From an uncultured virus (IMG/VR IMGVR_UViG_3300031853_000016) (lineage: Duplodnaviria; Heunggongvirae; Uroviricota; Caudoviricetes), in the IMG/VR virus record IMGVR_UViG_3300031853_000016: a stretch of 21,472 nucleotides of DNA; one strand, given 5' to 3'. Positions 2,288 to 18,516 of this stretch are shown here, piece by piece. The translations under genes and the position numbers were made by a program. Position 1 is the stretch's first letter. The number at the start of each line of letters is the position of its first letter. A model generated the notes under the pieces. The model was not told the DNA's origin. It saw nothing but the letters and a program-made list of their open reading frames with translations, and ran no database searches.

Positions 2288-4217
2288 ACTTTTTTACTTC
2301 CTTCCATGTGTATTTTTTCAGATCGCTCCACTTATAGGACGCAGCTCCTCGCCATGTGCTGAGCAGCCTGAGGTTCATGTCTTTCAATTCTGATTGCAGC
2401 ATATCCATTGTTCTGTCCTGTGGATCGTGGCCTGAGCTGACTGTGCTGCCCATGTATGACGGACGGCACAGACTTGCAGAGAGGTTTCCGAGAGTCATGC
2501 TGATAATGTCGCCTGTTATCTCGTTCTTTTCTACAGCTGTTATCTGCTGCACTGTTGATATATCCAGCTCGGGACAGTATATCGTTCCCCTGTCTCCGTA
2601 GTTGTAGTTCTGGAGGTCAAGGAAATCAGCATATCGAGGATCGTGCATCAGATTAGCGATCTTAAGTTCATATGTCACCTTCGGAGCGCACACCTGATTC
2701 CAGTACGCCATAGCGTCAGCTGCGAGGCGCTCCATTGAGCCCTCGAACCGATCATAGTTGAACTTCATCATTCTGCGCTTAGCGTGATGCACTGCCCATG
2801 CTGATGTGGGAGTATAAGACACCGCGAAGAAATTCCCGAAGTTGTCATAACAGTTCAGATTCGTGCAGAAATCCGTGTAGTCAACCTTCTGGCGTATCTC
2901 GACCATGTCGAGGCTGTACCTGAGATAAAAAGCGTCGTCCTTAGCAAACTGCATACGCTTGCAGACCGAGAAGTAAAAGTTATCCCTGTAGATCTCACCG
3001 CCGAAACGATTTATCATGCAGTTATCCACACCTGCTATAGCGCCCCAAAGCGTAACGTTCTCGTACTCGTCCACTCCTGCGATCTCGTCGCAGTCCGAAT
3101 AGCCCGTGAAGTCGTAAGGTTTATTATAGTAATCAAGCGGATTCCAGGGTACTTTTGCATTAAAAGCCCAGTTGATAAACTGCTGACCTGTACCGCCGTT
3201 GAAGATGCCGTGCTCGATTAGATCATCTGCCATATCTCCTGATATGTGCTTTGCATTGATTTTCATGGAACCACCCGAAGGACCTATATAAGGCTCCTGA
3301 GCATATATGCGGAAGAGCTGACCGTCAATCTTAAGGATATTCTGCACAAGCAGGAACTTCCATTTCCCCCAGTCGTCCAAAGGATGCACAAGCTCTATGT
3401 CCCACCTGTCCTTATCGTGATAGCTGGTACAGCTTATAGGATCCAGAATAGCAAGGCCGTTATGACGGAAACCGTTCTGCGGCTCGGAAATATCGTATAC
3501 CCTGATAACATGGTCACGCTCGAGGGGATCCATTTTGTATCGGGTAACATCAGGCAGCAGCTTATGCCACTGATAACCGTCGTCAGTCAGTCCGTCAACT
3601 CGCCAGACCGAGTCCGGCATAGAGGTAAGCATCGGCGGATCAGCTTCGGCAAGTCCGTCCTCGTGTCCGATGTTCTTATACTCTCCCTCGTCACTGAGGA
3701 AGTATGAAGTGTAGATATCAAGGTCTGCGGCAACAAGGAAGGTGTTCGTTCCTGCTCTGTCACGCGGAACGTCAGCATAGTCGTAGTAGAACTTACTGCC
3801 TGAACCCGAGATCATCAGTCGGAAGTGTGTTGCGTTCGGCATTACCGGAGTTACAGCAATGTCAGCCTCGTCTGTATCATCCGCTACCGTACACGTCAGT
3901 GTTGTCTGACCGAGGAACAGCACATTCTGTCCGTCTCTTGTATAGTACCAGCGCACCGCCTTAGTACCGCCATTCACATCTGTTATCTCTTCGCTGTAAG
4001 CCTGAGTCTGTGAATTGTAAGTGACCTTTGACTGCTGGATATTGCACTTCAGCTTAATCCCTGTTGCAGGCGTTTCCAGCGCTATGAGGTCGGAAAGCAG
4101 ATACGTATTGCTTTCTGTGATCGTCGCTCCGCTGACTCCGTATGTCTCATAGCTCCCTACCGATGCCGAGGCTCTCAGATTCTCCATAGGCGGCGTACTA
4201 TATGTGTGTGTATCCAT
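2268..4217 (-). CDS. Tail tip/hub protein (Tal-like, prophage tail endopeptidase family) with extra N-terminal domain
   Basis: Core begins near VIRVYD...FRHNGLAILDP and includes GQLFRIY, AKHISGD, RFGGEIYRDNF and GDRGTIYCPELDI. Lies downstream of Dit. Confidence 0.75.
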   Translation of the reverse strand: MDTHTYSTPPMENLRASASVGSYETYGVSGATITESNTYLLSDLIALETPATGIKLKCNIQQSKVTYNSQTQAYSEEITDVNGGTKAVRWYYTRDGQNVLFLGQTTLTCTVADDTDEADIAVTPVMPNATHFRLMISGSGSKFYYDYADVPRDRAGTNTFLVAADLDIYTSYFLSDEGEYKNIGHEDGLAEADPPMLTSMPDSVWRVDGLTDDGYQWHKLLPDVTRYKMDPLERDHVIRVYDISEPQNGFRHNGLAILDPISCTSYHDKDRWDIELVHPLDDWGKWKFLLVQNILKIDGQLFRIYAQEPYIGPSGGSMKINAKHISGDMADDLIEHGIFNGGTGQQFINWAFNAKVPWNPLDYYNKPYDFTGYSDCDEIAGVDEYENVTLWGAIAGVDNCMINRFGGEIYRDNFYFSVCKRMQFAKDDAFYLRYSLDMVEIRQKVDYTDFCTNLNCYDNFGNFFAVSYTPTSAWAVHHAKRRMMKFNYDRFEGSMERLAADAMAYWNQVCAPKVTYELKIANLMHDPRYADFLDLQNYNYGDRGTIYCPELDISTVQQITAVEKNEITGDIISMTLGNLSASLCRPSYMGSTVSSGHDPQDRTMDMLQSELKDMNLRLLSTWRGAASYKWSDLKKYTWKEVKKYGNKDT

Positions 4218-4228
4218 ATGCTCACCGC

Positions 4229-5146
4229 CTAATCAACAGCTTTATGCAGTGGGAATCCGGCAGCGAGGATCTCTTCCTGTTGCGTCCTGGACTGGGTTTC
4301 GTTAACGACGAGAACATGCTCGTCCCATGTCGCAATGTTCGGGCGGACTATGTCTCCCGTGTAGTCGCGGTCGATTTTCAGAGATATCCCGGAACCGTTA
4401 TATTTCACGCCCTTGTTCGTCTGTAGTCTTATGACGTTGAGTGCGCTTGCCGTTGTGCCTATTAAGAGCTTGCCATCTCCTGTGCCATCTCTCAGATATG
4501 TACCTGATACGATGCTGTTGTAGAGTGTGGTCATTCTGAACATATGCTCTGAATCGCTTGACACGGTGCTCTTATCTTGCACATCCATATGTAGTCTGCT
4601 ATGCTTGATATCGAATGAACCGTAATTAGACAGAGAACGTGTATATACAAATGACGTATTTGCTATACCATACACGTACGAGCCGAATTGATTAAGCGTT
4701 ACTTTTCTTCCGGGCGTTACAATGAAACTGTAGTTTTCAGCGCTGAATTCCAGCGATATTGTAACGTTGTCAAGTGCAGAATAGTCATTTGTAAAAATTC
4801 GGATAAACTCATGCTGGTTTGTATTCTGTGAATCATGTCTTGCGTTGGTTATTCGCAGATTCGACAGGCTTTGTGCAGCTTCTGAATAGCCGTTGCCGAG
4901 CTGAAAAGCTATTTGAGCTGTGCTGTAAAAGTTCCTCAACTCCCAACCGTTGAAGTCGATGATGCCTTTCATTGCTATGGTTTCTGTGAATCCTTGTGGA
5001 TTGATTTCGTTAAAGTCAACAACTTTATCCTCAGCATCGTCCCATACGATATACGTTGTGGAGCTTATGTTGCAGACTGTGAGAAAATCGTCCCAGTTAC
5101 CGACGATATACGGATCCATCTGTGTTCCTGAGCCTGTAGCAGCCAT
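4229..5146 (-). CDS. Putative tail-associated structural protein
   Basis: 305-aa ORF abutting Dit. N-terminal GSGTQMDPYIV motif (GSGT-x-x-DPY type); beta-rich composition. Confidence 0.6.
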   Translation of the reverse strand: MAATGSGTQMDPYIVGNWDDFLTVCNISSTTYIVWDDAEDKVVDFNEINPQGFTETIAMKGIIDFNGWELRNFYSTAQIAFQLGNGYSEAAQSLSNLRITNARHDSQNTNQHEFIRIFTNDYSALDNVTISLEFSAENYSFIVTPGRKVTLNQFGSYVYGIANTSFVYTRSLSNYGSFDIKHSRLHMDVQDKSTVSSDSEHMFRMTTLYNSIVSGTYLRDGTGDGKLLIGTTASALNVIRLQTNKGVKYNGSGISLKIDRDYTGDIVRPNIATWDEHVLVVNETQSRTQQEEILAAGFPLHKAVD

Positions 5147-11777: not shown

Positions 11778-12935
11778 TTATGATGCCTTGACCTTAAGAA
11801 CAGCAAGCTTCTGCTCGTCTGTGACCTTGCTGTCGAACTCAAACCAACAGTCGATGCCGATTGCGTGCTGAGTGTGATATGCTTCTCTGAGCACCTCAAT
11901 ACCGATATCCTCGCGGAAGTTTACAGAGAGACCGCTGTAGTCACCGTAGAGCACCGCAAGCTTGTTGCCGCCAATCTCGTCCATATTGTCAGAGAGGTAT
12001 ACAGGCTTTCCGAGGAGTCGGTAAGGGAACTCAGATGATACATCAGGCTGAATCAGAGGTCTGTTGTCTCCGTCCTTAAGCTGCTTGATAACTGTGAATG
12101 TTGCAGGAGTCATAGTCCAGCAAGCTTTCTTCTGGTGTGCCTGCTTAACAGCCGACTGGAGTGCGATAAGATCATCAAGACCAATGGTAAGTGCTGTACC
12201 TGTAGTAACAACATTTGTTGTCTTAACTGCGCCCTGTGCAGCACTTGAACCGCTACCCTTAAGGAGCTCTCCCTCGAGGAACTGTGCAGCCTTTTCAGCG
12301 ATCTTGCGGATAACGAACTCTGTAACGTTGACTGCTGCGCTGTTGATAACGCTCTTGCCAACAAGTACGAGAGCGCCTGCAAGATAACCGCCAAGATCTA
12401 CAGAAGCGAATTTACCGCTGTCTGCTGTGAGAGGAGTGAACTCTGTTGCATATCCTACAGTCACATCATGTGTAGAGTTTGCCTTTGTCCACTTCGGGAT
12501 CTTAAGAACGCCTTTTTCGTGGTATACGTCAGCTCCTGCAAGGATAGGACAGATATCAACGACAGCGTCGATGATACGCTTAGCAATAGTAGTCGGGATA
12601 ACTGCACCGTTGTTGTTAGTCCAGTCAACGTTCTGCTCGCCTGCTCTCATCTCGGTGATCTTACCGTTAAGGAAGTCGGTGAAAGCTCTCTCCTCGATCT
12701 GCTCCTGTGTGAGCTTCTCTGTCTGCTGTGCTGCCTGAGGGACGTGGAGCTCAGATATACCTTTAGCTCTCTCTTCCTTCTCGATAGTTGCATCGAGAGA
12801 CTTTATCTCTGCCTCGAGTGCATCAAATGCAGCAGTCTCCTCCTCGTTGAACGCACGCTCCTCAGCCTTTACAGTGTCAAGCATGGACTGAAGCTCTGCT
12901 TTCTTTTTGTTTCTGAGTTCAATAAGCTTTTTCAT
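11778..12935 (-). CDS. Major capsid protein, HK97 family, with N-terminal delta (scaffold) domain
   Basis: Coiled-coil first ~98 aa, then GAVIPTTIAKRII, LKDGDNRPL, RLLGKPVYLSDNM and YGDYS. Confidence 0.95.
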   Translation of the reverse strand: MKKLIELRNKKKAELQSMLDTVKAEERAFNEEETAAFDALEAEIKSLDATIEKEERAKGISELHVPQAAQQTEKLTQEQIEERAFTDFLNGKITEMRAGEQNVDWTNNNGAVIPTTIAKRIIDAVVDICPILAGADVYHEKGVLKIPKWTKANSTHDVTVGYATEFTPLTADSGKFASVDLGGYLAGALVLVGKSVINSAAVNVTEFVIRKIAEKAAQFLEGELLKGSGSSAAQGAVKTTNVVTTGTALTIGLDDLIALQSAVKQAHQKKACWTMTPATFTVIKQLKDGDNRPLIQPDVSSEFPYRLLGKPVYLSDNMDEIGGNKLAVLYGDYSGLSVNFREDIGIEVLREAYHTQHAIGIDCWFEFDSKVTDEQKLAVLKVKAS

Positions 12936-13507
12936 AATTCTTTGATCCTTCTTTCGTAATCAGTGTAATCGGGTTTATTTTCGTATGTGATATACTCAGG
13001 CGGTACATCCATACCGCGCTGTTCCAGGTCGACAGCTTCGCCGGCACGGCACTCCACCGAAGTAGCAGCATAACAAGGGATCTTGTCCTTGATAAGAGAT
13101 ATGTGGTCGAGCATAAGGCTTTTAACGTGCCTTATCGGGAGCTCATCCTCTCCCCTTTTCTCCATTTCGTCCTGTACGTTGTACATTCCGAAGCTCCAGC
13201 CTCTGAGCTTGCCTTTTCGTGCCATTTCAATGACTGTTTCATCGGTGATGAGTACGTCGGCGTGGAGTCCGATAGCGTCCTCTTTCAGCGTCAGAGTGCC
13301 GTCACGGGTACTTGCATAGGCGTGTCCCTGATCGTGATCGAGGGTAACGGTTATATCACCGTTCTTCTTGATAGCCTCCGCAAAAGCCCTCTCCTCGATA
13401 GTTTCAAGGACTTTGCCCCTTGGAGTTATCACAGGCCTGCTCAGCTTGCCGGTGACATTGACGTAGCCGCTTATATGCAGGCCGTCAGCTCTTAGTTCTA
13501 TACGCAT
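12932..13507 (-). CDS. HK97-family prohead protease
   Basis: ISGYVN, ETIEERAF, LDHD, LKEDAIGL and LRGWSFG (catalytic His and Ser contexts). Overlaps the capsid start by ATGA-like coupling. Confidence 0.93.
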   Translation of the reverse strand: MRIELRADGLHISGYVNVTGKLSRPVITPRGKVLETIEERAFAEAIKKNGDITVTLDHDQGHAYASTRDGTLTLKEDAIGLHADVLITDETVIEMARKGKLRGWSFGMYNVQDEMEKRGEDELPIRHVKSLMLDHISLIKDKIPCYAATSVECRAGEAVDLEQRGMDVPPEYITYENKPDYTDYERRIKEL

Positions 13508-13535
13508 TTTATCACTTCCTTTCGTGGTTTGGGTA

Positions 13536-13579
13536 TAAAAAATGCACCTGCAAGGGACGTTTATGTCCTTAGCAAATGC
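13536..13579 (-). terminator. Intrinsic terminator after the inserted 80-aa gene
   Basis: GCATTTGCTAAGGAC-ATAAAC-GTCCCTTGCAGGTGC followed by ATTTTTT. Confidence 0.65.
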
Positions 13580-13588
13580 TTGTAAGCG

Positions 13589-13831
13589 TTATTCAGTTAT
13601 GACAACATTCTCGAACTTCTTGTAAGCGTCGAGATACCATTCCTTCTTGTCGCCGTTGTATGTCAGCTCGTAGTACATACCATCAGGCAGCGAACTTGAC
13701 AGCAAATACTTCCAGTTCTGCAACGCCTTACACTTCCAGACGGTGTATACTTCAAACTCAGGCTTCTGGTCTGACTTGTCAAGGTGCCCTTCGATGTAGT
13801 CTCTGACTATCTGTAAAGCCTTCTCGTCCAT
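13589..13831 (-). CDS. Small phage protein, DUF6275-like (moron-like insertion in the head module)
   Basis: VYTVWKCKALQNWKYLLSS...DGMYYELTYNGDKKEWYLDAYKKFEN. The GGAGGAGGTG RBS places the start at MDEK (13831). Confidence 0.8.
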   Translation of the reverse strand: MDEKALQIVRDYIEGHLDKSDQKPEFEVYTVWKCKALQNWKYLLSSSLPDGMYYELTYNGDKKEWYLDAYKKFENVVITE

Positions 13832-13857
13832 TCTTCTCACCTCCTCCAAATGGGCAT

Positions 13858-13885
13858 AAGAAAACCGCTCACAATGTGAACGGTT
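13858..13885 (-). terminator. Intrinsic terminator closing the toxin-immunity unit
   Basis: AACCGTTCAC-ATT-GTGAGCGGTT followed by TTCTT, 10 bp after the stop of the 78-aa ORF. Confidence 0.75.
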
Positions 13886-13895
13886 AATTTGTTAT

Positions 13896-14132
13896 TTATG
13901 CGTGAATAATGCTATACAAATCATCGATGATAGATACAGCCATATCGCCTCTTTTGCCGATAGATGATGAAGTATCATCGCCAGCCATAAAGTTTTCATA
14001 GCTTTCATCTGTTTCAATGTCAAAACACTTCAAACGAATCTCTTCAACTGCTTTCTTATCGGAATAATCTATTTCAGTTATCCCGAATTCATTTTTCAGA
14101 AATTCAAGCTGTTTTGAATTCAACGTTTTCAT
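13896..14132 (-). CDS. Putative immunity protein for the portal-fused toxin domain
   Basis: 78 aa, acidic, AT-rich. Its ATG directly abuts the portal TAA, and its GGAGGGTG RBS is embedded in the last portal codons (LEGD). Function is inferred from position. Confidence 0.6.
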   Translation of the reverse strand: MKTLNSKQLEFLKNEFGITEIDYSDKKAVEEIRLKCFDIETDESYENFMAGDDTSSSIGKRGDMAVSIIDDLYSIIHA

Positions 14133-15764
14133 TTAATCACCCTCCAAGAGTATAGCCGTGATCATTAGACCGGAAGTTTCATAAACTAATCTGATATTGC
14201 CCTTCTGGACACACTTGCGATTAGGCTTATTTCCAGGATATGTACTTGTTGGATTGCTTAAAACATCTTTTACAGTACCGGAAGATATTCCTCTTTCAAT
14301 CATACGATCAGCAGTATGCGGTATCATTGACTGAATAACAGTTCCGTCTGCTGCTTTTGTACCTTTAATGTCTTTTATAAACTTTTTGCGTTGCTCTGGT
14401 GTTGCTTTTATTATACCACTTTTCTGAGATTTGTCAACACTTTTCCCGGATTTTCCACCTGCTCCGCTGGAAGAACTGCCGCCTGATCCTTTGCTTCCGG
14501 TAAAGTAACCGTGTGCTCCTTTAGTCCAGCTGTCTCCTCTTGCTCTCTCTTCGCCTGTTTTCAGGTTCTTTGTCTGTCCTGTATTCGGTGTGAATACGTC
14601 CATAGTCTCAGGATTGAGGAGAACGTCCTGGAGTCCCAGTTTGACGAAGTTGAAGCCGAGCGGTTCATAGTCCTCTTCACGGCGTATCTCGTCTATCTGA
14701 AGGATATTATTGCGGACAGCGACTTCATAAGCATCGTAGCGCTCCTTCATGCTGCCGCGTGTCAGTTCTTTCGTATCAAATGCCCAGTAATAGCCCTGCT
14801 CCTTCTCTGATTCAAGCAGCAGAACGTTGTCAAGCTCCGTTTCTATCTGATTCAGGAGGGATATGACCGCAGAAATAAACTTCTTGTTGTCGTCCTCGGA
14901 AGCGCCGCCGTCAATGACCGTATGAGGGAAGCCAAACAGCTTGCATATTTCAATACTGTTGGTCTTCTTGTTCTCGTTCATCTGAAGCTCTGCCGCCGTT
15001 GAAGAAATAGCCTCGAAGTCTACACCGTCATTCAGTACGACGATCTTATCACGCTTCTCCTCGTTGTCATAGACCTTCTGATATCCTTCCTTGATAGCAG
15101 CTATTGCCGCATCCGAGAGCCTGTTCTTCGATTTCAGGAAGCCCGGTTTGCATCCGCCGTTGGAGTTCATCATGTTTTCGAGCTTCAGAGCGTTCCATGC
15201 AGCTGATAGTATCGATGATGCTTCCTCTTGCAGCGGAATATTTGTATATCCGTCACGAGTTTTGCGCAGCAGCTTGACGAACTGGAAGTCATAATACGTC
15301 TGTGCGTTTATCTGAACTCGGAAAGCCTTGAATATCGGATCCGTGTTGCAGAGTATACTGACACTGCGGCTGTCCACATAGTGCAGGCTCCTGACGCTCA
15401 GGCTGTCACTGTTGACGTATATCCAGGCTCCGCGGCCGAGATAGTAGTCCTCGACAGCTGCTTTCCACATATCAACAGTGCTCAGTGTATCGCCGGTGCT
15501 GCCGTTCAGCAGCTTTATACGCGGATCATCATATATTTCCGTGACTTCTTCTTCGTCCTTGCGGTAAAGCTTCACAGGAAGCCGTGATATTGTCTCTCCG
15601 ACCTTGTTGATGCAGGCTGATACTGTTGGTATACTGAGAGCAGCTTCACGAGTAAGCTCCCCGGTGATACCGAAGAACGTCAGTATAGATGTCTCTGCAT
15701 TCTGAACAGTATCTGCTCTTATTTCCTGTTTCTTTTTACGTCTGAAAAGTCCTATTGTGACCAC
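14133..15764 (-). CDS. HK97-family portal protein with C-terminal Gly/Ser linker and putative DUF4258-like toxin (RNase) domain
   Basis: Portal motifs AALSIPTVSACINK, ICKLFGFP, FDTKELTRG and DEIRREED occupy ~400 aa. A further ~135 aa contain GSKGSGGSSSSGAGG and PHTADRMIERGISSGTVKDVLSNP...IRLVYE...ITAI. The true start may be ATA at 15755. Confidence 0.9.
   Translation of the reverse strand: MVTIGLFRRKKKQEIRADTVQNAETSILTFFGITGELTREAALSIPTVSACINKVGETISRLPVKLYRKDEEEVTEIYDDPRIKLLNGSTGDTLSTVDMWKAAVEDYYLGRGAWIYVNSDSLSVRSLHYVDSRSVSILCNTDPIFKAFRVQINAQTYYDFQFVKLLRKTRDGYTNIPLQEEASSILSAAWNALKLENMMNSNGGCKPGFLKSKNRLSDAAIAAIKEGYQKVYDNEEKRDKIVVLNDGVDFEAISSTAAELQMNENKKTNSIEICKLFGFPHTVIDGGASEDDNKKFISAVISLLNQIETELDNVLLLESEKEQGYYWAFDTKELTRGSMKERYDAYEVAVRNNILQIDEIRREEDYEPLGFNFVKLGLQDVLLNPETMDVFTPNTGQTKNLKTGEERARGDSWTKGAHGYFTGSKGSGGSSSSGAGGKSGKSVDKSQKSGIIKATPEQRKKFIKDIKGTKAADGTVIQSMIPHTADRMIERGISSGTVKDVLSNPTSTYPGNKPNRKCVQKGNIRLVYETSGLMITAILLEGD
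14410..14437 (-). promoter_or_regulatory. Internal SigA-type promoter inside the portal-toxin linker
   Basis: TTGACA (14437-14432), a 16-nt spacer ending TGG, then TATAAT (14415-14410). Both hexamers are perfect and there is an extended -10 TG. Confidence 0.8.
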
Positions 15765-17989: not shown

Positions 17990-18050
17990 CAGAGGGGGGC
18001 GTCGTTGGACAGCTGCCCTCCCTCTGAGAGCCGCTACCCCCTGGGGGGAG
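17990..18050. other. Probable cos (cohesive end) region
   Basis: GC-rich segment between HNH and terS bounded by G/C runs (- strand CCCCCCAGGGGG...CCAACGACGCCCCCCTC). This is the usual cos location in HNH/P27-TerS phages; the exact cut site was not determined. Confidence 0.55.
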
Positions 18051-18423
18051 TGTTTTTTACAATTTTTAACAGTTTTTCGGCAGGTATCTCGCCGCTTTCC
18101 GCCAGTTCGTGATGTACTCTGCACAGCGTGATAAGGTTTTCATCTTCGAGACGCAGTTCCCAGTTTGTTTTCAGCGACTGAATGTGATGCACTGACAACT
18201 CTTCACTGTTGAATCTGCGAACAGTAAACGGCAGATTCTCAAAACAAGCACGGCAAAGATACATATCTCTTTTCAGAATGTGCTCTCTCTTGCACTTCCA
18301 AGCGTAGGACCAACGAAACAGATCTTCTCTGTTGCCGCGTTCTCCGTATGTATTCTTAGGACGCTTATCACAGCTCTCGCCCTTGCTGTGGACTTTCCCA
18401 CAATAAACACACGCCTTTTTCAT
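18034..18423 (-). CDS. Terminase-associated HNH endonuclease (HK97 gp74-like)
   Basis: CVYCGKVH, RDMYLCRAC, VHHI...ENLITLCRVHH. The AGGAG RBS places the start at MKKAC (18423). Confidence 0.9.
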   Translation of the reverse strand: MKKACVYCGKVHSKGESCDKRPKNTYGERGNREDLFRWSYAWKCKREHILKRDMYLCRACFENLPFTVRRFNSEELSVHHIQSLKTNWELRLEDENLITLCRVHHELAESGEIPAEKLLKIVKNTPPRG

Positions 18424-18438
18424 ACGAATGCTCCTATA

Positions 18439-18474
18439 ACAGAAATACCGCTCCTGCCCGGAACGGTATCCTGT
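18439..18474 (-). terminator. Long hairpin (terminator-like) just upstream of the HNH RBS
   Basis: ACAGGATACCGTTCC-GGGCA-GGAGCGGTATTTCTGT. Confidence 0.45.
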
Positions 18475-18516
18475 GAAAAAAATCAAACGAGGTATGTCCA
18501 ACTACATGAAATCCTG

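Follow-up and report, generated by a model that had tools for sequence, protein, structure and literature searches.

The window analysed here is a 21,472-nucleotide stretch of DNA from an uncultured member of the Caudoviricetes (IMG/VR record IMGVR_UViG_3300031853_000016), a rumen Ruminococcus phage. On its minus strand one open frame passes from an HK97-type portal through GEERARGDSWTKGAHGYFTGSKGSGG and a Gly/Ser stretch into a domain containing H-T-A-D-R-M-I-E-R-G-I-S, and the segment from 14133 to 14552 corresponds exactly to residues 405-543 (Table 1). The core matches Pfam Phage_portal (PF04860) at residues 46-365 with an E-value of 5e-45 (154.4 bits against a cut-off of 39.1) and NCBIfam portal_HK97 (TIGR01537) with 151.1 bits against a cut-off of 112, and the best PDB match of the AF2 model of the portal is the HK97 portal itself (8fql_A, E 5.6e-17). 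The gene order also fits a portal, with TerL upstream and the S78 protease and capsid protein genes downstream. Residues 1-32 are disordered in the AF2 model, and pLDDT falls below 50 over residues 408-451, the onset of disorder being residue 408. A preliminary description of this DNA, made from the letters alone, had noted that no MuF gene is evident, and we likewise find no match in the portal (Pfam, E≤1) or in the 25 other ORFs of the window (E≤1e-3) using Pfam profiles PF04233 and PF06152, profiles for MuF3 and MuF4 being absent from Pfam.

Table 1. Coordinates of the portal-tip gene, its neighbours and the predicted signals within the window.
Feature	Coordinates	Strand	Basis
One 543-aa ORF encoding portal core, linker and toxin-like tip	14133..15764	-	TAA stop
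HK97-type portal core, aa 1-407	14544..15764	-	Pfam, TIGR01537, AF2 model
N-terminal E-I-R-A motif, aa 14-17, candidate prohead-protease site	15714..15725	-	
E405-E-R-A408, candidate prohead-protease motif at the exact core/linker boundary	14541..14552	-	
Gly/Ser-rich disordered linker, aa 408-442, mosaic among homologues	14439..14543	-	pLDDT; alternative linker modules
Basic tip, aa 443-543 (101 aa), pI 9.8; BECR-fold, DUF4258/Ntox49-like predicted RNase	14136..14438	-	
Junction peptide V-D-K-S-Q-K-S-G-I-I, predicted extended -10 promoter at the DNA level	14410..14437	-	Consensus and conservation
Codon of His483, predicted catalytic histidine in the first core helix	14316..14318	-	56-sequence alignment
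Acidic 78-aa candidate immunity protein, pI 4.4	13896..14132	-	Co-variation, relatives, complex model
Terminator-like hairpin (AACCG...CGGTT) with T-rich tail, 3' cassette boundary	13861..13885	-	
S78 prohead protease, proposed to release the tip	12932..13507	-	Pfam PF04586, E 1e-25
HK97-fold major capsid protein	11778..12935	-	Pfam PF05065 at 110-381

The only Pfam family to appear for the tip at E≤1 is DUF4258 (PF14076), which aligns at residues 483-523 with an E-value of 1.4e-4 and 22.6 bits, under the 25-bit cut-off. Sibling tips pass that cut-off (P0027 at 26.0, P0142 at 29.5, P0147 at 29.8 and P0153 at 29.2 bits), and by these profile scores the tip is DUF4258-related and not a certified DUF4258 member. 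No PBECR family appears for it in Pfam at E≤1, PHROGs assigns it to no family (best E 0.083), NCBIfam returns nothing, a PDB sequence search gives nothing below E 1.4, and there is no match at E≤1e-3 among the phages of GenBank (50,697 records). The AF2 model of the tip (pLDDT 90.2, pTM 0.79) has three helices followed by four strands, and in a structure search against 48,161 chains all of ranks 1-32 except rank 9 are BECR-type toxins with Z-scores of 4.0 to 6.4, a range that the search tool calls common; they include the colicin E5 RNase domain (6.4), RelE1 (6.3), YafQ (6.1), CdiA-CT (6.0) and colicin D (5.3). Foldseek finds no PDB match at E≤0.001; its top match is CdiA-CT (5i4q_A, probability 0.99), and the other weak top matches are also BECR toxins. 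Residues H483, R487 and R491 (columns H41, R45 and R49) are at least 90% conserved in an alignment of 56 sequences, and T536 is invariant in 8/8 sequences, giving the pattern of a His in a helix and a C-terminal Thr that is common to PBECR domains. The conserved residues of Ntox49 are listed as H and [KR] (PMC3482391), and DUF4258 is counted among the type II toxin-antitoxin toxin families, with its own activity listed as unknown (PMC11980606). From the model and the structure search we confidently predict a BECR/RelE-like RNase fold for the tip, and profiles and alignment show a DUF4258-type motif in it, which agrees with the earlier assignment of this domain to a DUF4258-like BECR nuclease fold; the tip is presumably an active RNase and toxic.

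Comparison of 121 portal homologues with core identities of at least 71% reveals 16 clusters of tips, two further tips without the junction motif, and ten short or tipless forms. There are thus at least 18 tip classes, and the reading frame is kept across all of them. Pfam names some of these tips as Ntox50, ADPrib_exo_Tox or Gln_amidase, and more weakly RadC/JAB, so that ART, deamidase and JAB types are represented. Cores that are 94-96% identical to this portal bear other tips (P0010, P0013 and P0015), and the same tip is found on a core that is only 43% identical (P0009). Other carriers bear members of the tip family as well: of 34 proteins scanned, 11 are PF06381 portals and 2 are S78 proteases. 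Some of the tips, such as the JAB-like and metallopeptidase-like ones, are not obvious toxins.

The class of the tip and the class of the first downstream ORF correspond almost one-to-one in 35 distinct loci, although these loci are related to one another and the counts are not independent events. The present tip class is paired with the 78-aa family in 4/4 loci, and the tipless portals have no real downstream ORF in 4/4. Orphan or stand-alone cassettes are present at four places (L007 7024-7604, L014 6172-6803, L027 6303-6815 and L001 1463-2215), and the stand-alone forms retain the linker and an E-L-R-G motif; a scan of viral contigs with P0142 yielded no locus. A conserved carrier, varied tips, a co-varying downstream gene and orphan cassettes are among the hallmarks of polymorphic toxins sensu Zhang et al. 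2012, and this family has all four. The tip is therefore far from invariant among its homologues, and the expectation of the preliminary description that the core would be conserved while tip and downstream gene vary together is borne out.

The downstream gene begins with an ATG directly after the TAA of the portal gene and has a GGAGGG Shine-Dalgarno sequence 7 nt upstream. Its product has 33 relatives but no informative name: PHROGs offers only the unnamed phrog_7261 (E 2e-4), NCBIfam nothing, and the ESM Atlas unnamed clusters. Co-modelling of the tip and the 78-aa protein gives an ipSAE of 0.67 over three runs, whereas the best control reaches 0.01; agreement on contacts between the runs is at least 89%, and the partner pLDDT is at least 85. 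The same ipSAE mark is reached by 116 of 157 solved complexes and by 2 of 215 mismatched pairs, a calibration that is only rough with custom alignments. The predicted contacts include tip residues 39-45 and 91-99, and the conserved His/Arg site lies within the interface. One PF06381 portal bears a distant version of the tip, and the gene after it encodes a remote homologue of the 78-aa product (hhalign probability 93.9%, E 1.6e-7). The 78-aa family is present in 3 of 161 genomes of the host genus, one of them being a remnant, and the host chromosomes give no hint of orphan immunity islands. Co-variation with the tip, the relatives, the complex model and the distant pair together support the earlier suggestion that ORF 13896-14132 behaves as a cognate inhibitor, which in the model is predicted to bind over the His/Arg site of the tip.

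All of the variable linkers among the portal homologues begin immediately after a G-E-x-R-A sequence, and the second motif, E-I-R-A, falls within the disordered region at residues 1-32 and is found at the same N-terminal position in distant portals. All four E-x-R-A motifs of the capsid protein are in its N-terminal delta domain (aa 25-98), and the S78 protease itself contains five E-x-R-[AGS] motifs. The motif was chosen after inspecting the sequences. Of the 23 proteins of the window, only three (portal, S78 protease and capsid protein) contain E-x-R-[AGS], with 11 occurrences in total. At distant loci there are 9.5 occurrences per 1000 aa among capsid proteins and 13.3 among proteases, compared with 0 for TerL and 0.94 for the remaining proteins. 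The prohead proteases of HK97 and phi12 have a basic P1 residue, at K103/S104 (PMC10275583) and R128/L129 (PMC8569155), respectively. The distribution of the motif suggests that the S78 prohead protease probably cuts after Arg407 in E-x-R-A, but the motif may instead be structural because tipless portals also keep G-E-E-R-A.

The start of the tip coding region contains a putative promoter with TTGACA, a 16-nt spacer including TGn, and TATAAT, matching all 12 consensus bases plus the TG, with a predicted transcript start near 14403. For this tip there is no start codon with a ribosome-binding site after the promoter, so that only the inhibitor would be translated from such a transcript; one other tip class has a Shine-Dalgarno sequence and an ATG there, and could be made as a free tip. 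Beyond the inhibitor gene is a hairpin with a folding energy of −13.2 kcal/mol (z −3.55), which recurs after immunity genes of unrelated classes and shows compensatory changes in 4 of 10 pairs among 17 copies. The perfect promoter and the hairpin are 577 nt apart, and each is conserved and the only such site in the window, where shuffled sequences give 0.01 perfect promoters. The cassette thus appears to be flanked, in the manner of a moron, by its own promoter and terminator. Against this, one contig from an RNA library runs across the hairpin. A search of positions 13400-14700 against Rfam gave nothing at E≤1. The hairpin was also considered as an integron attC site and rejected, since by eye the flank after CGGTT does not fit GTTRRRY, which we take to be the attC core.

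We consider it probable that these elements constitute a portal-borne polymorphic effector cassette in which toxin and inhibitor can be exchanged as a unit. The portal, a flexible linker and a small BECR RNase-type toxin would be translated as one chain, and the acidic 78-aa inhibitor encoded by the next gene would cap the His/Arg site of the toxin and protect the producing cell. Solved structures of HK97-like portals establish that the C-terminus faces the capsid interior, and up to 12 tips could therefore be built into each head. Cleavage after Arg407 by the S78 protease would free a 136-aa fragment of linker and tip, and this fragment could leave with the DNA at infection, as has been proposed for the MuF toxins and shown for T4 internal proteins; in this way we infer packaging, cleavage and delivery into cells. 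The cassette, comprising tip and inhibitor, would have the coding-embedded promoter as its 5' edge and the terminator hairpin as its 3' edge, and because these edges are conserved it could be swapped by recombination there. It could also be transcribed alone, either in lysogens or straight after DNA entry, and so supply the inhibitor.

A more specific proposal, which we put forward tentatively and regard as possible rather than probable, is that the cassette is a dual-use unit. Late in infection the toxin would be loaded into the capsid as the end of a portal or of a short leader and freed at the Arg-Ala bond of E-x-R-A, and in lysogens or after entry the antidote would be made alone from its insulated promoter. 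Cells that destroy the incoming genome by restriction or CRISPR, or neighbours free of the prophage, would stay poisoned, with lysogens and productive infections being rescued, and the conserved edges would let cassettes pass between portals of two unrelated families, prohead proteases and leader peptides. If this is correct, the virion delivers a poison whose antidote is encoded on the DNA that it injects.

The cassette might instead act inside the cell that carries it, as a toxin-antitoxin, abortive-infection or exclusion moron that is never delivered, the in-frame join to the portal being a by-product of the site of insertion. The consensus promoter and terminator would suit such a module, as would the stand-alone cassettes, the tip class that could be translated freely and the place of DUF4258 among type II toxin families (PMC11980606). 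We nonetheless think it rather unlikely, since the promoter-derived transcript of the present cassette would yield the inhibitor and no tip, and since fusion has occurred repeatedly to three carriers of the capsid interior (two portal families and the prohead protease), with the frame kept across at least 18 tip classes and the linker and E-L-R-G retained even where the cassette stands alone.

What we read as a promoter could also be conserved as a peptide, serving as a protease or packaging signal, or as a region of homology for recombination, with the promoter match as a side effect. The peptide [VIL]-D-K...[GDA]-I-I is indeed conserved among the homologues, and a conserved junction ahead of the variable part is typical of polymorphic toxins, VENN in CdiA being an example. 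The promoter itself is predicted from DNA letters, through a consensus match and its conservation, the RNA data being contigs from three metatranscriptome runs that are silent on start, strand and level. In one of the contig sets (X12) depth is greater over 13662-14309 than upstream of it, but contig depth of this kind is no basis for ranking genes. However, the promoter is kept at synonymous sites in 41 junctions. The GAC codon is used in 41/41 against a background of 0.49, ATA in 39/41 against 0.36, and at another codon the third base is fixed as T in 41/41 against 0.26 even though the amino acid varies among seven residues. Synonymous sites outside the hexamers vary freely (TCT in 14, TCC in 16 and TCG in three for Ser; ATT in 14 and ATA in 27 for the last Ile), and the spacer changes in sequence and is constant in length. 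In another portal family (L082 and L089) the -35 hexamer is read in a different frame, encoding L-T and not x-D-K, yet the promoter is still perfect. We judge the peptide or homology reading unlikely; the site would more plausibly be used as a promoter.

It is very unlikely that the tip remains on the portal with a structural or packaging role in the head, such as nucleic-acid binding or DNA retention, with its nuclease chemistry lost or irrelevant. Many portals do bear C-terminal extensions within the capsid, the tip is basic, and it is dispensable for assembly, as tipless relatives exist. Such a role would nevertheless leave unexplained why the tips comprise at least 18 unrelated folds (ART, deamidase and JAB among them), why catalytic-type His and Arg residues are conserved, and why a co-varying gene encodes an inhibitor predicted to cap them.

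That portal and toxin are separate genes joined by an assembly or frame error is hardly conceivable, as the same fusion occurs in eight distinct proteins and in-frame tips in more than 100 portal homologues, and positions 13640-14619 are recovered, with a single substitution and free of indels, in one contig of an independent DNA run (X3, record 18, depth 123); a relative (L014) whose portal is split by a stop codon, elsewhere in the gene, is all that could be said for it. The X3 contig includes the downstream ORF, continues through tip and linker into the portal core and has no stop near 14540, confirming the continuous 543-aa frame of the preliminary description. Parts of the stretch occur in 20 listed runs, 13 of which contain at least half of its sampled words, and no slippery heptamer was seen by eye at the core/linker boundary.

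The proposed mode of action recalls that of several known systems. In T4, the internal proteins and Alt travel as prohead cargo: an N-terminal peptide targets them, the head protease trims them after Glu within a short motif, and they are ejected together with the DNA. The portal tips would likewise be assembled into the prohead, trimmed at a short motif and expelled along with the DNA, but their carrier is a portal or short leader, the proposed cut is after Arg in E-x-R, and the protease is of family S78. In CdiA-CT/CdiI and Rhs-CT a conserved junction precedes a variable toxin and its immunity gene, and displaced orphan cassettes keep the junction. All of these features have counterparts here, but those toxins are delivered from the cell surface, not by a virion, and their junction is described as a peptide motif.

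The closest parallel is with the MuF polymorphic toxins (PMC3482391; PMC5576092; Bxa and Apk2, PMC11699363), which also have a carrier in the head interior, variable C-terminal toxins followed by small immunity genes, and a position in the head-morphogenesis module. DUF4258, listed as a MuF-toxin tip by Jamet et al. 2017 (PMC5576092, Tables S4 and S7), Ntox50, ART and Tox-PL1/Gln_amidase tips occur in both systems, and in both delivery with the DNA is a hypothesis. They differ in that the carrier here is the essential 12-copy portal, whereas 1-2 copies of MuF per capsid are cited for SPP1 gp7, and in that the portions of the MuF accounts compared here mention no embedded consensus promoter or terminator edge. 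At the junction of the MuF2-DUF4258 gene in the cultured phage phiNIH1.1 a consensus promoter is lacking, and only 10-of-12 promoter-like matches occur, at background frequency; the embedded promoter is thus not a general feature of phage-head toxins. The portal-tip gene is not a member of the MuF family, but probably works like one.

Fusions of PBECR RNase domains to MuF and portal domains have been reported (Iyer et al. 2017, PMC5512222, which also names T4 internal proteins and Alt as capsid-targeted cargo), and PBECR, 2H, Nudix, ART and InPase domains are described as fused to portal or MuF (PMC5512222; Iyer et al. 2022, PMC9503650). The PBECR-portal fusions are, however, a one-line architectural note, the text of which, Fig. 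5A and supplements aside, describes no polymorphic family, immunity gene, junction motif, promoter or terminator, and the present tip matches DUF4258 and no PBECR family at E≤1. With MuF polymorphic toxins already described and portal-PBECR fusions briefly mentioned before, the novelty of this locus is smaller than the first reading of it had hoped.

Two further comparisons concern the predicted promoter. The morons of lambdoid and HK97-like phages (PMC3594210) are likewise independent transcription units with promoter and terminator inside a late operon, but here the promoter is inside a coding sequence and the first frame is the C-terminal part of an essential structural protein. In the type VI secretion genes vasX/tsiV2, tseL and vgrG-3 of V. 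cholerae the immunity gene has its own promoter, located within the preceding toxin frame, and is transcribed separately from the main operon (PMC3857813), so that cells are immune while the weapon is off. That system is not a phage head, and its promoters were shown by reporter fusions, whereas ours is predicted from consensus and conservation.

According to PMC11699363, phage-head polymorphic toxins still lack a known biological role; this family offers a tractable case, with a 12-copy portal as carrier, a proposed release site of four residues, and an antidote promoter that can be mutated synonymously without change to the protein. Delivery of toxin with the DNA, punishment of genome-degrading cells and protection of lysogens all become testable. 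The family is common, and its tips offer a store of uncharacterised domains (toxin, JAB-like and peptidase) together with their paired inhibitors. In addition, the synonymous-site signal for a promoter within a structural gene illustrates overlapping codes cleanly.

A complete genome nearly identical to this phage (G001) encodes a CI-like repressor, and neither PF00589 nor PF07508 was found in it as an integrase; lysogeny of this particular phage is thus not established. Among the 50,697 GenBank phage records there is no DNA match and all portal matches have less than 40% identity, and no cultured phage in that set carries this system. The tip was not found in four host genomes carrying related prophages. 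The host genus is a major group of rumen fibre degraders, and 32 of its 161 species genomes carry this portal type. A relative (L005) sits as a prophage within a 335-kb contig from a cultured R. flavefaciens strain and is the nearest usable material.

The portal gene of the window is a single open frame whose product matches Phage_portal in Pfam at residues 46-365 (E 5e-45) and portal_HK97 in NCBIfam, with a further match to DUF4258 at residues 483-523 (E 1.4e-4) that at 22.6 bits falls under the 25-bit cut-off. When the full-length chain is modelled with AF2 (35-row alignment, mean pLDDT 70), the core (residues 1-407) has the HK97 portal 8fql_A as its best PDB match (E 5.6e-17), residues 1-32 and 408-451 are disordered, and the C-terminal domain is folded; we refer to residues 408-442 as the linker and to residues 443-543 as the tip. 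The preliminary description had proposed that the segment at 14133-14552, corresponding to residues 405-543, fuses a putative RNase toxin to the portal. That this fusion is real and in frame is confirmed by a contig from an independent DNA run, which at a depth of about 123 spans 13640-14619 with one substitution and no indels. Of the 20 listed runs with some of the stretch, 13 contain at least half of the window's sampled words, and the same portal-tip fusion occurs in eight distinct database proteins. Elsewhere among the relatives, one portal frame is broken by a stop into ORFs of 260 and 300 aa, and one portal match holds a TAG codon; these interruptions may reflect sequencing error, decay or recoding.

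The 101-aa tip, which is basic (pI 9.8), has 83 relatives at E<=1e-3 among 1.84 billion representative proteins searched, and in nearly all of them the match is C-terminal; G468, H483, R487 and R491 are kept in at least 90% of the 56 aligned relatives. The model built from this 56-sequence alignment (AF2, pLDDT 90.2, pTM 0.79) places three helices ahead of an antiparallel sheet of four strands. Foldseek returned nothing at E<=0.001 for this model, its best matches being CdiA-CT of E. coli NC101 (probability 0.99), HigB, RelE, YafQ and colicin D. Alignment against 48,161 chains placed the colicin E5 RNase domain first (Z 6.4, rmsd 2.4, 68 aligned), with RelE1 (Z 6.3), YafQ (6.1), CdiA-CT (6.0), ParE, YoeB, BrnT and colicin D among the other top chains, and BECR-type toxins fill ranks 1-32 except rank 9; it is the coherence of this list that supports a BECR assignment, the Z-scores themselves being only moderate. 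Together with sibling tips that exceed the DUF4258 cut-off (26.0 to 29.8 bits), these ranks agree with the earlier proposal of a BECR-fold, DUF4258-type domain. A 2026 preprint assigns DUF4258 to the colicin-like BECR branch, overlapping Ntox49 (10.64898/2026.08.28.747851), and Zhang et al. (PMC3482391) include Ntox49 among predicted BECR RNases, with H and [KR] conserved and MuF as one of its carriers.

The portal core is conserved while the tip varies, the pattern for which the preliminary description had suggested looking. Searching with residues 1-430 gave 2027 matches, of which we examined the best 120 (at least 71% identical) together with P0009, a portal 43% identical overall that was recovered through the tip search. 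All 121 portals are collinear as far as F-T-P-N-T-G-Q-T-K-N-L-x-T-G-E-x-R-A, beyond which they consist of a mosaic Gly/Ser linker, a junction peptide and a tip. The junction peptide is of the type [VIL]-D-K-S-x-K-S-G-I-I in 108 of the 121, ten portals are tipless or truncated soon after the core, and two tips are truncated. The 106 tips of at least 40 aa cluster into 16 classes (26, 13, 13, 11, 10, 10, 6, 6, 3 and 2 members, and six singletons), the window tip belonging to the class of 11; two further tips lack the junction motif, one with an H-E-L-G-H motif (P0082) and one JAB-like (P0104). Four classes are named by Pfam, namely Ntox50 (E 9e-18), ADP-ribosyltransferase (9e-22), Gln_amidase/Tox-PL1 (1e-12) and DUF4258, and there is a weak match to RadC-like JAB. 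An H-x-H-P...S-x-x-D motif typical of JAB/MPN peptidases is seen in several tip classes and H-E-L-G-H in one (P0010, P0043, P0047, P0104; L017, L020, L027), and rather than toxins, such tips may be enzymes for anti-defence or processing.

Recombination of tips between cores is evident from these comparisons. Three portals (P0010, P0013 and P0015) have cores 94-96% identical to that of the window and different tips, and P0009 carries a window-type tip (49% identity) on a core only 43% identical. Contigs of co-occurring variants, from both DNA and RNA runs, part from the window sequence at 14562-14563, slightly 5' of where core and linker meet. The tip family also uses other carriers from inside the capsid: among 34 longer tip relatives scanned, the carriers are PF04860 portals (three), PF06381 portals (11, two of them with a NUDIX domain between portal and tip) and S78 prohead proteases (two). 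Distant tip relatives in other phage lineages are preceded by a glycine tag of the D-G-G-P-G-S-G type that replaces the junction (alignment A2).

The preliminary description also raised the possibility that the downstream gene varies together with the tip, and this is what we observe. Related loci from genomes, IMG/VR and metagenomes include 49 with a portal ORF, representing 35 distinct combinations. The first downstream ORF belongs to the 78-aa partner family after all four window-type tips, to one 64-aa family after five of six Ntox50 tips (the sixth being a divergent Ntox50 with another partner), to a zinc-ribbon-like 79-80-aa family after all five tips of a third class, to one family in all six cases where the tip is one of three related short ones, and to its own family after three of four tips of a fifth class, where the fourth ORF looks spurious; the four tipless portals have no downstream ORF or an implausible one. 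Judged by this pairing, the downstream gene is the cognate partner of the tip. In the window its ATG immediately follows the portal TAA stop, with GGAGGG 7 nt upstream, and its product is acidic (pI 4.4), has 33 relatives of 76-118 aa, and matched no named family in searches that included NCBIfam and the ESM Atlas. Models of the tip with the partner gave an ipSAE of 0.67 in three runs, compared with 0.01 for the best control, with at least 89% contact agreement and partner pLDDT of at least 85; the mark used for this score is reached by 116 of 157 solved complexes and two of 215 mismatched pairs, and is only rough here, own alignments having been used. The models support binding, and the contacts, among them tip residues 39-45 (with His483 and Arg487) and 91-99, predict that the partner caps the conserved His/Arg site. 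Homology at L090, a locus with a PF06381 portal and NUDIX domain, provides independent evolutionary support for the proposed pairing: the gene after a distant tip homologue there encodes a distant homologue of the partner (hhalign probability 93.9%, E 1.6e-7).

The codons of the junction peptide contain a perfect consensus promoter match (12/12), with TTGACA, a 16-nt spacer containing TG, and TATAAT, which a consensus scan finds once in the 21.5-kb window (shuffles 0.01). Across 532 kb of loci we counted 52 distinct perfect sites, versus about 0.2 expected assuming uniform base composition, 48 of them on the gene strand and 51 with the TG; for 41 the frame is that of an x-D-K junction, and for four more that of x-D-N variants. 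The peptide pattern alone identified 42 junctions, of which 41 were kept and one, a chance match inside an immunity gene, was dropped. In all 41 the first codon ends in TT (background GTT 0.29 of Val codons), the Asp codon is GAC (0.49), and codon 7 ends in T whether it encodes S, T, N, D, G, P or L (0.26); codon 8 is GGT, GAT or GCT in 40 (GGT 0.26 of Gly codons) and the first Ile codon is ATA in 39 (0.36). Positions outside the hexamers and TG drift (Ser TCT 14, TCC 16, TCG 3, TCA 1; last Ile ATT 14, ATA 27), and the spacer is constant in length and variable in sequence. Because synonymous sites are split in this way into constrained and free, the pattern points to selection on a DNA signal rather than on the peptide, although the junctions share descent and the counts are not independent. 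Two loci with another portal family (L082 and L089) read the -35 in a different frame (L-T) and have a 17-nt spacer, and the promoter is again perfect; at L091, L093 and L094 an I-D-K-S...D-I-I junction precedes a tip class also present in the examined family. No ribosome-binding site with start codon follows the promoter for the window tip, so the junction transcript would yield the partner only. In one JAB-like class, GGAGG and an in-frame ATG lie downstream of the junction promoter, and a free form of this tip may also be made.

The other edge of the cassette is a hairpin with a T-rich tail, 11 nt past the partner stop (-13.2 kcal/mol, z -3.55), and the window has no second AACCG...CGGTTTT site. 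Identical hairpin edges, with the tail TTCTTATACC, occur after partner genes of unrelated classes. We found 46 distinct copies on the gene strand, 31 with a junction promoter 480-1200 nt upstream; 45 of 49 distinct cassettes have a downstream ORF, and by a strict rule the hairpin lies within 90 nt after the ORF in 24. Four of the ten pairs show compensatory double changes in 17 aligned copies, and the gene-strand RNA folds better than its complement owing to G-U pairs. The promoter and terminator positions thus delimit the window cassette. A terminator-like hairpin with a TTCTTATG tail is also seen in the MuF2-DUF4258 phage phiNIH1.1, after the small ORF behind the toxin gene, and the terminator edge may thus be more widespread than the promoter edge.

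Coordinates of features in the window and in related loci (L- and G-handles; G001, also L077, is a complete genome near-identical to the window)
Feature	Locus	Coordinates	Strand	Remark
HNH endonuclease gene	window	18034-18501		adjoins terS
Portal-tip ORF	window	14133-15764	-	543 aa
Candidate portal N-terminal cleavage motif	window	15714-15725		residues 14-17
Candidate junction promoter	window	14437..14410	-	codons for V-D-K-S-Q-K-S-G-I-I
Partner gene	window	13896-14132	-	78 aa
Terminator-like hairpin	window	13885..13863		10 bp
Cassette	window	14437 to 13861		577 nt
DUF6275 gene	window	13589-13849		E 3e-29; between cassette and protease
Protease and capsid genes	window	11778-13507		
CI-like repressor gene	L077	13675-14487	+	HTH_3 + Peptidase_S24
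Region with repressor and replication genes	L077	3480-15126		
Portal frame with one stop	L014	3860-5545		
Portal match with one TAG	G008:C23	7289-8491		
Glycine tag before tip relative	L090	around 3900-4283		
Hairpin in phiNIH1.1	L095	2058-2084		
Displaced cassette	L007	7024-7604		
Displaced cassette	L014	6172-6803		
Displaced cassette	L027	6303-6815		
Second cassette	L001	1463-2215		window-type tip and partner
Second-cassette remnant	L004	2005-2205		decayed
terS-terL cargo site	L002	2859		
terS-terL cargo site	L003	1534		
terS-terL cargo site	L007	1588		
terS-terL cargo site	L014	1182		
terS-terL cargo site	L020	1507		
terS-terL cargo site	L026	1504		

A candidate site for release of the tip lies at the end of the portal core. 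The window's 23 proteins contain the motif E-x-R-[AGS] 11 times, always in capsid-interior proteins: four times in the delta domain of the capsid protein (residues 25-98, the last at 95-98), five times in the protease, and twice in the portal, near the N-terminus and at residues 405-408; the other 20 proteins contain none, versus about 3.7 expected from summed per-protein shuffles. Because the motif was chosen after viewing these sequences, it was tested on more distant loci, with portals mostly 36-66% identical and one closer locus (L069) included. There it occurs at 9.5 per 1000 aa in capsid proteins (68/7124 residues, nearly all in the first ~120), 13.3 in proteases (42/3150), 2.4 in portals (17/7157), 0 in TerL (0/10102) and 0.94 in other proteins (12/12812). 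The motif looks like the cleavage code of the S78 prohead protease in this phage group; the mature capsid protein should then start at site 95-98, and the N-terminal portal motif suggests trimming there. Basic P1 residues are reported at the HK97 maturation site (K103/S104; PMC10275583) and in phi12 and its satellite (R128/L129 and K87/Q88; PMC8569155). At the end of the core the x varies (E, V, D, Q, I), with E and R constant among homologues, predicted disorder begins at residue 408, and a putative cut after Arg407 would yield a 136-aa, 14.2-kDa fragment. Tipless portals also retain the motif, so release at this site stays putative.

Computation shows the fused architecture with its toxin-like BECR domain, the cognate partner, polymorphic and orphan cassettes, conservation of the promoter and terminator at the cassette edges, and the boundary motif, and the earlier reading of a portal-borne toxin system is supported as far as sequence analysis reaches. 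In HK97-like portals the C-terminal crown points into the capsid, and it is within the procapsid that prohead proteases are active. We propose that twelve tips would be built into each head together with the portal, freed by the prohead protease, and exit with the DNA to cut host RNA. The partner would protect the producing cell, and the junction promoter would supply it in lysogens and at once upon DNA entry.

The nearest known system is that of the MuF polymorphic toxins, which follow the same logic and share part of the tip repertoire; for MuF2 proteins of streptococcal phages, DUF4258 has been tabulated as a putative RNase tip (PMC5576092, supplement Tables S4 and S7), and the role of MuF toxins is still termed unknown (PMC11699363). 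In the available text of that literature the portal appears only as a neighbouring gene, whereas here it is the carrier. In the simplest PBECR architectures, according to Iyer et al. 2017 (PMC5512222), the domain is joined to MuF or portal, and 2H, Nudix and ART fusions to portal are reported (Iyer et al. 2022, PMC9503650), so the bare portal-fusion architecture is already in print. We found no description, in open-access literature and preprints, of a polymorphic portal-borne family with immunity genes or of a coding-embedded promoter at a polymorphic-toxin junction. The internal promoters of V. cholerae T6SS immunity genes (PMC3857813) and phage morons (PMC3594210) are functional analogues of the junction promoter; the cultured phage phiNIH1.1, unlike the window family, has no consensus promoter at its junction. 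Phage-head polymorphic toxins are known; this family bears them on the portal and has an unreported cassette design with embedded candidate promoter, terminator and protease motif, a design that makes the function of phage-head toxins experimentally approachable.

The window covers the late region of a siphovirus-type phage, and its genes, read on the minus strand, follow the order HNH endonuclease, TerS, TerL, portal, small ORF, DUF6275, S78 prohead protease, HK97-fold capsid protein, connector and tail genes, holin and GH25 lysin. An HNH endonuclease beside terS is a known pairing in cos-type HK97-like phages. At the DUF6275 position relatives have DUF6275, a different 77-82-aa ORF, or nothing. 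G001 is 32,745 bp with terminal repeats and encodes a CI-like repressor, replication protein O, SSB, and ERCC4-type and PDDEXK nucleases; no tyrosine or large serine recombinase/integrase was detected in it. A 335-kb contig from a cultured R. flavefaciens strain contains a relative. Of 161 species genomes from the host genus, 32 carry the portal type, in frames that stay open for 403 to 628 aa; the records that bear a name come from ruminants and belong to Ruminococcus flavefaciens and Ruminococcus sp.

Cassettes are also found away from the portal. Three displaced copies retain the linker end and junction, and a second cassette lies between terS and terL in many relatives, with a leader of ~27 aa in place of the portal ahead of the same linker, junction, tip and partner. 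At L001 the second cassette is of the window type and the portal bears another tip, and in the L004 remnant the leader is fused to the end of the partner gene. The terS and terL genes of the window overlap, which leaves this second cargo site empty there.
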